Source of the DNA: Escherichia phage PinkRuby
Strand: one strand, 5' to 3'
Length of the DNA stretch: 64,000 bases
Sequence record: PP925839.1
Below, in pieces: positions 31,672-33,363 of the stretch (the stretch's first letter is position 1; every line of letters begins with the position of its first letter). Under the pieces are notes generated by a model. It did not search any database. It saw only the letters and a program-made list of their open reading frames with translations, and was not told the DNA's origin. The translations under genes were made by a program, and so were the position numbers.

Positions 31672-32127
31672 TTAAAAGAGGCTGTTCATTATTCGGTAAA
31701 GTGAAGGACCCATCACATATTGCCACTGAGTACGAGGAATAAGAGCAAAAGCATCCATCTCTGGAATCATAACACCATCTTTATTTTCAAAATAAGACTC
31801 GCAATGGCAATTTCTAAACATCTCATGCTCTACTGGAATCGTATAATAAAATAACTGTAAGTCTTTATTACTAGAATATTTAAATACACCTAGGTCTTCT
31901 AGAAGGTCTGGATTATAATTGTTAAAACCAGTCTCTTCTGAGCATTCTCTTCGTGCTGCATCTAATGCGCTTAAATCAGAATTTTCTACACGCCCCTTTG
32001 GAATATCCCAGCGATGTGCCATCATTCCAGGCTTACGAGAACCAGTAACTCGTCCCATAAATAAATCTTTATCTTCTGTCATGAAGATAATACCAGCTGA
32101 TAATGTTTTCATTTTAATTTCCTGCAT
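31672..32127 (-). CDS. nudE: Nudix hydrolase
   Basis: 151 aa; Nudix box GRVENSDLSALDAARRECSEETG (G-x5-E-x7-REUxEExG). Confidence 0.85.
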   Translation of the reverse strand: MQEIKMKTLSAGIIFMTEDKDLFMGRVTGSRKPGMMAHRWDIPKGRVENSDLSALDAARRECSEETGFNNYNPDLLEDLGVFKYSSNKDLQLFYYTIPVEHEMFRNCHCESYFENKDGVMIPEMDAFALIPRTQWQYVMGPSLYRIMNSLF

Positions 32128-32597
32128 TCAGTGATAAAATTATTTAAATTTTGAGTATATTTCTTTTCATCAAAAATCTTTTGCTGCCTACGTAACCGCC
32201 ATGGCATTTCAATGAACACGCACCATATTCCTGATAGTACTGCTGCTGTAAAAATATTAACAAGTATAATTAAAAGAATCCAATCTTCCGTTCTGCCTAC
32301 TGGACTTTCTCCAAAGAAGCAAAATACAAATGATGTCACAGGAAAACTAATAATATACCACAGAATAACCTTCTTATCTGTGAACCAATCAGCGTTCGTT
32401 AACTTAGCACGACCATTTTGAATACACACGAATTTATCATCTGTTACAGTAGATGGCTTAACTGCTTGATATCCCATTCTAAACTCCCTAATTAATCGTT
32501 TCTTTGTATCTTCAGAACAGCCGCTCCAGTCAACTCTATCGACTGAAATGCCATCGTCCCCATCATCTAAATCATACCAGCGAGTTTTTAAAATCAT
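32109..32597 (-). CDS. Membrane protein, tandem paralog 1 (C-terminal CRK motif)
   Basis: 162 aa; hydrophobic segments; ends NNFITECRKLK. Confidence 0.6.
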   Translation of the reverse strand: MILKTRWYDLDDGDDGISVDRVDWSGCSEDTKKRLIREFRMGYQAVKPSTVTDDKFVCIQNGRAKLTNADWFTDKKVILWYIISFPVTSFVFCFFGESPVGRTEDWILLIILVNIFTAAVLSGIWCVFIEMPWRLRRQQKIFDEKKYTQNLNNFITECRKLK

Positions 32598-32968
32598 TTG
32601 ATTTTCCTACAATCATTCACGAATTCTTTCATTGATTCATTTTCAATATAAGACATGTAGTTATTATATTCTTTTAATTGTATTTTGTAATCCTTTTTTC
32701 TTTGCCAATTTATTTTAAAATTATCATAATGAAAATATAAAATGATACTAAAGAATGAAAATAATGAAATTGCTATAGTATAATGAAGTTCACTCCAAAC
32801 TTCTATTATATCTACTATACCGCTGACGTTACTGCGGATGTTTAAAATAATACAGTCAATCATTAATCCAATAAGACTACCAGCAAGAGCTGCAGCCAAC
32901 GCCACAGCAAAAATTAAAAATGACTCAGAAAAAGAATATTTGACTTTATTTAGTTTTGGCTTTTGCAT
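32594..32968 (-). CDS. Membrane protein, tandem paralog 2 (C-terminal CRK motif)
   Basis: 124 aa; hydrophobic segments; ends EFVNDCRKIK. Confidence 0.6.
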   Translation of the reverse strand: MQKPKLNKVKYSFSESFLIFAVALAAALAGSLIGLMIDCIILNIRSNVSGIVDIIEVWSELHYTIAISLFSFFSIILYFHYDNFKINWQRKKDYKIQLKEYNNYMSYIENESMKEFVNDCRKIK

Positions 32969-33363
32969 CGTGATTCCTTAACAAATTTCATAATTTCATT
33001 AAATTCATACATATTTAGTTTAAGCTGGTGTTCCTTTTTAATCTTTTTACACTGAGCTTTCCATTCACGTACACGTTTACGATAATGCCTTCCTTGATAC
33101 CAATATCCTACCCAATTTACAGGTACCAATAAAAATGGAACTACAAATGGAAGAATTAATACGAACAAAAATATTACGCCAGATTCAATATCAGTCATAA
33201 AGTCTATAACCATTCCAACAATCAATAGAATTACAAATGATATAGCTGTCACAGGACCTATTAATATATCAGTAGGAATTAGCTGGCGCTTTAATTCATA
33301 CTTCACAGGTTTACTTGGAAGGTATAGTGATGGCTTTGACATATTCTCTACATTCCTTAACAA
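32950..33363 (-). CDS. Membrane protein, tandem paralog 3
   Basis: 137 aa; hydrophobic segments; ends MKFVKESRCKSQN. Confidence 0.6.
   Translation of the reverse strand: MLRNVENMSKPSLYLPSKPVKYELKRQLIPTDILIGPVTAISFVILLIVGMVIDFMTDIESGVIFLFVLILPFVVPFLLVPVNWVGYWYQGRHYRKRVREWKAQCKKIKKEHQLKLNMYEFNEIMKFVKESRCKSQN

Follow-up and report, generated by a model that had tools for sequence, protein, structure and literature searches.

A C-terminal tail motif shared by the overlapping genes e.5, e.4, e.3 and e.2 of the T4-like Escherichia phage PinkRuby

Four consecutive, overlapping genes of Escherichia phage PinkRuby, assigned below as counterparts of e.5, e.4, e.3 and e.2 of phage T4, encode proteins that carry a common motif at their C-terminus. 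The genes lie on the minus strand of a stretch of 64,000 nucleotides of this phage (PP925839.1), which we refer to as the window and whose numbering is used throughout. Three of the products are predicted hairpins of the inner membrane, the fourth is soluble, and the codons of the motif appear to double as translation signals for the next gene. An earlier note on this DNA had described three tandem paralogous small membrane proteins ending in a conserved Cys-Arg-Lys motif, and had seen in them a locally expanded family of envelope proteins, candidates for superinfection exclusion or lysis timing. The three open reading frames (ORFs) are all found, on the minus strand, where that note had placed them, and their tails, FITECRKLK (e.2), FVNDCRKIK (e.3) and FVKESRCKSQN (e.4), read exactly as given there. 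The tail is indeed shared, but its core is longer than Cys-Arg-Lys and starts upstream of it, and e.4 reads F-V-K-E-S-R-C, with the Cys displaced by two residues.

Anchored on its Phe, the extended motif reads hydrophobic(-3)-x-x-F(0)-[IV](+1)-x-[ED](+3)-C(+4)-[RK](+5). The residue at position +4 is S, I or V in the e.4 family, and in the e.4 proteins of Tequatrovirus and Mosigvirus a Cys stands two residues later. The fourth carrier is the soluble e.5 protein, in which FVKECREY (LLLEKFVKECREY) is the best-conserved block at 21% overall identity. The strict pattern F[VI]x[ED][CS]R has a probability of 4.7e-6 per position, and 0.56 hits are expected in the six frames of 64 kb; it was observed five times in the window, four of them at most 11 residues from the C-termini of the four consecutive genes. 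The extended motif is confined to these four genes in a scan of 376,794 codon positions, equivalent to the T4 genome and made up of T4 1-50 kb, the window and T4 95-169 kb, and it persists in orthologues that are ~20-30% identical. By simple geometry, residues -3, 0 and +4 fall within ~60 degrees of arc on a helix and would form a narrow hydrophobic stripe. Another C-terminus, FVKEGKPK at 25431..25658, was set aside as that of an unrelated Cys-rich soluble ORF.

Judged by sequence and gene order, the three genes of the earlier note are orthologues of T4 e.2, e.3 and e.4 in a Tequatrovirus. They are e.2 at 32109..32597 (162 amino acids), e.3 at 32594..32968 (124 amino acids) and e.4 at 32950..33342 (130 amino acids from the ATG at 33342). 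The e.2 and e.4 products match their PHROG families over the full length (phrog_2203, E=9e-78 over residues 1-160; phrog_2604, E=3.6e-70 over 1-130 of 130), and e.3 matches phrog_2330 (E=2.3e-61) and keeps its position between e.4 and e.2/nudE. With the e.5 orthologue (33311..33916, 201 amino acids; phrog_2607), all four PHROG matches are at ~E=1e-61 or better. The third ORF spans 32950..33363; the start at 33342 (MSKPS...) is more likely than the upstream one at 33363, since T4 and ime09 are annotated so and this N-terminus is conserved across genera. The overlapping run e.5-e.4-e.3-e.2-nudE, all on the minus strand, ends with nudE (31672..32112; Nudix hydrolase, PF00293, E=1e-13), the last of the translationally coupled genes. 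The overlaps amount to 32 nucleotides from e.5 to the e.4 start, 19 for e.4/e.3 and 4 for e.3/e.2.

In DNA, the region shares 98.6% identity with Escherichia phage Ge15 and over 90% with hundreds of tequatroviruses. Phages ime09 and T4 annotate the equivalent positions as e.2, e.3 and e.4; in both, e.5 and e.6 lie upstream, and nudE, the lysozyme gene e and denV lie downstream. The T4 genes e.2-e.5 are direct orthologues with the same order, overlaps and neighbours. The window proteins share 84-91% identity with the T4 copies (UniProt P32273, P32274, P39222, P39223; 88% for e.3). In a large protein database, 99 of 99 e.4 homologues are labelled PF26873 (Phage_T4_Y06O), e.2 homologues PF26896 (Phage_T4_Y06M) and e.5 homologues PF26876 (Phage_T4_Y06P); a local scan of e.2-e.6 gave no meaningful match with a copy of Pfam that predates these three families. 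Genes e.2-e.5 are hence catalogued T4 ORFs without recorded function and not new genes, and they are among the roughly half of T4 genes that still lack a known function. Searches of the literature by gene names and Pfam numbers returned no functional study of e.2-e.5 and no account of the shared tail. Within that literature, neither the tail on four genes and its dual coding nor the hairpin cassettes and the mechanism of deletion treated below appear to have been described. In some records, homologues of e.3 and e.4 are named 'sulfurtransferase', 'DNA primase', 'head outer capsid protein' or 'putative phosphoserine phosphatase'; with no domain evidence behind them, these names look like propagated annotation errors.

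Each of the e.2, e.3 and e.4 proteins has two hydrophobic segments (Kyte-Doolittle means of 1.8-3.0 over 19 residues), and the same measure finds none in the neighbours e.5 and e.6. In e.2, a soluble N-terminal part of ~75 residues precedes a first transmembrane segment (TM1, ~77-95), a short loop, a second segment (TM2, ~106-130) and a basic tail ending in NLNNFITECRKLK. The e.3 protein begins with MQKPKL..KY, followed by TM1 (~17-39), a loop of ~20 residues, TM2 (~61-80) and a tail ending in ESMKEFVNDCRKIK. In e.4, the N-terminus MSKPSL..KY leads to TM1 (28-47), a loop of 4-7 residues and TM2 (55-76), which runs on as one helix into a tail of ~55 residues ending in EIMKFVKESRCKSQN. AlphaFold2 models e.4 accordingly as a hairpin (predicted local distance difference test, pLDDT, of 76), with a helix at 30-49, a loop at 50-53 and a continuous helix at 54-129 that bears the motif at its far end. 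The e.2 model has a similar layout at low confidence (pLDDT 51), its N-terminal domain being unresolved, and was for this reason left out of the fold search. With the e.4 model, a Foldseek search of the PDB found nothing below E=3.9, as expected of a plain helical hairpin. Net charge is 0 to +3 in the N-termini, -2 in the loops and +3 to +10 in the tails. Following the positive-inside rule, this pattern would place both ends in the cytoplasm, and e.2-e.4 are predicted to be inner-membrane hairpins, N-in/C-in, with a long basic C-terminal helix on the cytoplasmic side. Such a placement agrees with the presence of the same tail on soluble e.5, and the predicted topology fits the 'envelope proteins' of the earlier note.

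Variation is concentrated in the hairpins. The cytoplasmic ends have a column entropy of 0.24-0.48 bits, whereas that of the hairpin is 0.55-0.95 bits and peaks in the e.4 loop. When the e.5-to-nudE block was compared in 45-nucleotide windows with the contig of a T4-like phage from a Shigella assembly, identity was 91-100% except for islands of 51-76% in the e.4 hairpin and in TM1 and the loop of e.3. The hypervariable cassette of e.4 (residues 28-76) corresponds to 33115..33261, at 51-76% DNA identity to that contig, and the variable hairpin of e.3 (residues 17-80) to 32729..32920, with islands at ~32885-32929 (71%) and ~32795-32839 (51%). The e.2 hairpin (residues 77-130) lies at 32208..32369. 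Within Tequatrovirus, the e.4 hairpin falls into 6 clusters at 70% identity and its flanks into a single one, and hairpin identity drops as low as 29% in pairs whose flanks are >=95% identical; the hairpins of e.3 and e.2 follow a similar, weaker trend. Since local drift cannot give such islands in otherwise identical DNA, the comparisons indicate that these hairpins and loops are alleles exchanged by recombination.

We tentatively favour, while holding it somewhat short of probable, a reading that combines a docking tail with a hairpin that confers specificity. First, the shared tail would be a common docking or assembly element, joining the four co-translated products to one another or linking each of them, on the inner side of the membrane, to one and the same cytoplasmic partner. 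Second, the variable hairpin and loop would set specificity in a membrane-level conflict, the likeliest being the blocking of DNA entry by competing T-even phages and the neutralisation of a membrane-acting host defence. Finally, the role would be conditional, hence the dispensability of the genes in laboratory hosts. Knock-down of T4 e.2-e.8 by CRISPRi-ART gave no fitness defect ('Not Fit'; PMC11879866, supplementary file 15). The RNA of T4 e.2-e.5 belongs to the early class, and all four products have a protein-level temporal class (PMC9697503, supplementary files 4 and 6). Early RNA and a hypervariable loop facing the periplasm are compatible with a conflict role of the exclusion type. What were four anonymous ORFs can now be treated as a structured, testable unit, with a constant cytoplasmic tail that a soluble partner also carries and a hypervariable, recombining membrane and periplasmic segment typical of conflict interfaces.

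Several points weigh against the docking and specificity reading. No experiment or homologue provides a functional link for e.2-e.5. PADLOC-DB has no family at E<=1 for e.2-e.6, an NCBIfam scan of the same proteins gave no meaningful match, and no PDB entry matched in sequence searches with e.2, with e.5 (as single sequence and as profile) or with e.6. The canonical-position Cys is missing from the e.4 family motif, the profiles of e.2 and e.4 are not significantly similar, and the periplasmic loops of e.4 and e.2 are very short (4-10 residues). Moreover, co-translation and the shared motif could reflect a common ancestry of the junctions without a common partner. Fast evolution is general in transmembrane segments, so that relaxed constraint may underlie some of the variability, though it would leave the sharp islands within near-identical DNA unaccounted for.

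Superinfection exclusion or lysis timing, as put forward in the earlier note and with the proteins acting like T4 Imm and Sp or RI, RIII and T, is in our judgement an unlikely account when taken as a whole. There are small inner-membrane proteins of two helices that keep incoming DNA out, T4 Imm being one. Like Imm (83 amino acids, two membrane helices) and Sp, the e.2-e.4 products are small, early, non-essential inner-membrane proteins; they are dispensable in single infections, and their periplasm-facing loop is hypervariable and exchanged between phages, so that the role could be analogous. However, their profiles score at noise level against all of these proteins: no similarity was found to Imm (hhalign 11-15.6, within the range of shuffles), to the holin T, RI and RIII (9-16.8) or to Sp. 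Unlike Imm, e.2-e.4 have a long conserved cytoplasmic tail and a soluble partner with the same tail. What is conserved in them faces the cytoplasm, and their periplasmic loops measure 4-20 residues. As for lysis, no link to it was found; the run ends with nudE, after which comes the lysozyme gene e. A lysis-timing role has no support, while an exclusion role is possible and overlaps with the explanation that we favour.

The tail might instead be an autonomous signal in each protein, such as an amphipathic helix for the membrane surface or a signal for turnover or processing, with the four proteins acting independently. The motif does sit at the extreme C-terminus of a helix, in a basic context and with one hydrophobic stripe (-3, 0, +1, +4); on soluble e.5, such a helix could send the protein to the membrane, and e.2 has been lost without loss of the others. 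A stripe about one residue wide is nevertheless narrow for a helix lying on a membrane surface, and to our knowledge the motif resembles no C-terminal protease tag. We regard independent signals as quite unlikely.

The codons of the motif overlap with the signals for translation of the next gene at every junction from e.5 to nudE. In e.5, FVKECR is encoded at 33347..33364, where AAGGAA (K-E) stands upstream of the e.4 ATG. In e.4 (FVKESR, 32968..32985), AAGGAA (K-E) corresponds to the Shine-Dalgarno sequence of e.3, whose ATG lies inside the Arg-Cys codons (cgATGc). In e.3 (FVNDCR, 32606..32623), AGGAAA (R-K) corresponds to that of e.2, with an ATGA overlap of start and stop. In e.2 (FITECR, 32121..32138), the next AGGAAA (R-K) is that of nudE, 5 nucleotides before an ATG that overlaps the e.2 stop codon (ATGA). 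The ATGA overlaps at e.3/e.2 and e.2/nudE, with a Shine-Dalgarno sequence inside the upstream gene, resemble those of other coupled early phage genes, but they stand alone in that the upstream gene also codes for a conserved peptide motif, common to four consecutive genes.

This arrangement raises the possibility that the motif has no function in the protein and is a by-product of packed ribosome-binding sites and starts, together with junction repeats spread by recombination. Each copy does hold the Shine-Dalgarno sequence of the next gene, 5-10 nucleotides before its ATG, 16 nucleotides (AAATTTGTTAAGGAAT) are identical at the e.5/e.4 and e.4/e.3 junctions, and deletions and hybrids arise at junction repeats. 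The codons, however, vary synonymously while the residues are kept: TTT/TTC for F, TGT/TGC for C, GAA/GAG for E and AGG/AGA/CGA/CGT for R, i.e., both codon families of Arg. The Shine-Dalgarno sequence also shifts within the motif, falling on K-E, E-E or R-K codons (GAGGAA at E-E in Dhakavirus e.2), and the F, the I/V and the hydrophobic residue at -3 lie outside it. The motif is kept ahead of different downstream genes in mosigviruses, dhakaviruses and gapriverviruses, and FIAECRE is retained in e.5 of Gaprivervirus although no Shine-Dalgarno sequence is obvious within it. Of the 19 ATGA-type overlaps in the window, two (e.3/e.2 and e.2/nudE) end in CRKxK and the other 17 have unrelated C-termini. 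The codon data largely exclude the by-product, to which we give very little credence. Because amino acids are kept while codons change, with Arg drawn from both codon families, the motif is under selection at the protein level and dual-coded with the translation signals of the next gene.

The relatedness implied by 'tandem paralogous' proved to be uneven. Smith-Waterman scores against shuffles are marginal (e.3-e.4 z=5.3, e.2-e.3 z=3.8, e.2-e.4 z=1.95, the last not significant). Family profiles, built from orthologues of four genera and database hits, were compared by hhalign with 100 column shuffles per pair that keep composition. Not one shuffle reached the score of e.3-e.4 (z=8.7, E=5e-5, full length), e.2-e.3 (z=9.2, over the last 18-21 residues of the tail only), e.2-e.5 (z=8.0) or e.3-e.5 (z=6.4); one did so for e.4-e.5 (z=2.4) and 11 for e.2-e.4 (z=1.2). 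The joint alignment of e.3 and e.4 is coherent from end to end, with M-x-K-P-x-L..K-Y before TM1, [IV]-N-W after TM2, then R-x-x-[DE]-[YW]-K-x-Q and the tail, and e.3 also matches the e.4 PHROG (E=0.006). Between e.2 and e.4, DNA aligns over ~45 nucleotides at the start of TM1 (34 identities, two gaps, z=3.8). High DNA scores for e.3-e.4 and e.4-e.5 were discarded, as they come only from the physical overlap of the genes. Twelve other small T4 proteins (Imm, Sp, T, RI, RIII, Ac, 52.1, 55.8, 47.1 and others) score 9-21 against these profiles, which is noise level. On these profiles, e.3 and e.4 are ancient paralogues over their whole length, and e.2 has architecture and tail in common with them, so that paralogy as claimed in the earlier note stands in part: for e.3/e.4 in full, for e.2-e.3 in the tail only, and for e.2-e.4 with a DNA match at TM1 but no significant similarity of profiles. 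That the three are unrelated small membrane ORFs, alike through hydrophobic and basic composition, has almost no chance of being right even though e.2 and e.4 score at noise level in both comparisons and Pfam keeps e.2, e.4 and e.5 as separate families, and for e.3/e.4 and for the tails it is already refuted by the z=8-9 that shuffles keeping composition leave for e.3-e.4 and e.2-e.3, by the shared blocks of the joint alignment and by the noise-level scores of other T4 membrane proteins.

The term 'locally expanded' is misleading, as the e genes form an ancient set present in Tequatrovirus, Mosigvirus, Dhakavirus and Gaprivervirus, in which present copy number differs through loss only. A tblastn search over 50,697 phage records, with >=60% identity taken as the Tequatrovirus level, matched e.4 in 673 records (503 at that level), e.3 in 607 (498) and e.2 in 533 (447), and found no extra copy of any of the three in any record. 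A profile search of 1.84 billion cluster representatives gave 8 matches only, all T-even forms of e.3 or e.4, and no distant relative hinting at function; in IMG/VR, only 5 loci were found.

Several natural variants of these genes are on record. Phage UFV-AREG1 lacks exactly e.2, and the two junction repeats have merged there into a hybrid e.3/nudE junction (gat followed by TGCAGGAAATTAAAATGA); this hybrid is found uninterrupted in at least 35 of the records listed, including RB32, RB33, PST and PP01. The repeat TG[TC]AGGAAA is common to the e.3/e.2 and e.2/nudE junctions, and the sequences indicate that e.2 was removed precisely by recombination between the two copies of the repeat. The T4 reference e.2 (NC_000866; 1610-2098 of the extracted locus, equivalent to window 32109-32597) carries a deletion of one nucleotide in an A-run and an insertion of one nucleotide downstream. 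This frameshift accounts for the annotated 102 amino acids, although frame 0 still contains the tail ...NNFITECRKLK; the window, unlike T4, carries an intact e.2 of 162 amino acids. A database cluster of 102 amino acids (P0193; 22 member sequences, the sources naming Yersinia phage fPS-2) has the same truncated form. An in-frame e.4::e.2 chimera occurs naturally in phage UFV05 (P0143), with its crossover exactly at the ~45-nucleotide alignment of e.2 and e.4 at TM1, and in P0195 (69 amino acids) residues ~30-90 of e.4, i.e., both helices, are deleted in frame. Such deletion and fusion variants are ready-made genetic controls. In addition, P0144 (97 amino acids, from an ENA contig of 703 nucleotides) joins the first 36 residues of e.4 to unrelated sequence labelled HTH_11, and could have arisen by genuine recombination or in the assembly.

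The junction repeats recall the PeSL shuffling cassettes (PMC2839356), in which crossover between short repeats at the gene boundaries of a variable genome region leads to gain or loss of whole genes, as it does for e.2 at TG[TC]AGGAAA. PeSLs, however, are intergenic units of promoter and terminator, whereas the repeats of the e genes are coding sequence for a C-terminus and hold a ribosome-binding site. No intergenic promoter and stem-loop of the PeSL type was found at the e.5/e.4/e.3/e.2/nudE junctions, which are overlapping coding sequences, and the one strong promoter and the one stem-loop both lie at e.6; since they are coding and lack promoter and stem-loop, they are not PeSLs. A broader view, possible but doubtful at this stage, is that e.5-e.2 form an unrecognised membrane module of T-even phages, in which one C-terminal docking helix would be combined with exchangeable transmembrane and periplasmic cassettes for conflicts between phages or between phage and host, and the tag would double as ribosome-binding and crossover site. 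The coding sequence of the tag would then be the coding counterpart of PeSL shuffling. The junctions themselves are a clear case of one short sequence that is protein motif, ribosome-binding site and recombination site together.

Beyond Tequatrovirus, Mosigvirus ST0 (NC_041990, our locus L004) holds at ~3158-3517, on the minus strand, an unannotated e.3 homologue of 119 amino acids (MQKPQLLAVW...NFIKECRK before the stop), which sits between gp244 and gp243 and overlaps both in the usual manner. About 3 kb from the e.3/e.4 pair of the same phage and ahead of a different gene, gp249 (L004 434-739) encodes 101 amino acids with two helices, ends in NLENFIKECRGK directly before the stop, and looks like a short member of the e.2 type without the N-terminal domain. 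For annotation, three points follow: the T4 reference copy of e.2 is what a frameshift has left of the gene, at least one Mosigvirus record has no entry for its e.3 homologue, and names of the 'sulfurtransferase' type are baseless. After e.3, a gaprivervirus (L010 2768-3820), a dhakavirus (L012 4191-5212) and the mosigvirus (L004 2365-3161) carry a different tandem family of soluble proteins of 65-96 amino acids that end in W[VF]SSSxxC, FNSSMSC or YPSSC (for instance ...GAWVSSSAMC and ...GGWVSSSSEC); no ORF of this family was found within the window.

Upstream of e.5, the e.6 gene (33958-34551, minus strand) encodes 197 amino acids with a predicted coiled coil, ~85-90% identical even between genera and thus far above its neighbours. 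In some records it is named 'host specificity protein'; searches of Pfam, NCBIfam and PDB sequences gave no match for it. A reading of e.6 as PspA-like, with e.2-e.4 as partners resembling PspB/C, was dropped, unsupported by Pfam and PDB sequence searches. A strong site resembling a sigma-70-type promoter (TTTACA-17-TATAAT, 11/12) lies upstream of e.6 at 34596..34624 on the minus strand and is the probable early promoter of the run from e.6 to nudE; no comparable promoter was found inside the run from e.5 to nudE. Between e.6 and e.5, a sequence scan detected a GC-rich stem-loop, GGGGC-uucg-GCCCC, at 33937..33952.

The ribosome-binding region of e.5 (33917-33957, minus strand) contains GGAG (ggagtgagtaggaATG), and the internal junctions use AAGGAA or AGGAAA. 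The T4 endoribonuclease RegB cuts GGAG in early Shine-Dalgarno sequences, and e.5 might differ from the coupled genes downstream in sensitivity to RegB. Farther away, a tRNA cluster at 37438-38455 (minus strand) gives 11 Rfam matches, one of them just above threshold (30.2 bits); T4 has 8 tRNA genes, and PinkRuby may carry more. On the other side of the run, an ORF of 105 amino acids (30338-30655, minus strand) adjoins denV and starts with MKTYKEFIAES, an N-terminus that we take to resemble the capsid-targeting leader of T-even internal proteins. In the window, denV is followed directly by e, without the intervening ipII and ipIII of T4, and at the corresponding position ime09 has a gene annotated as Ip4.

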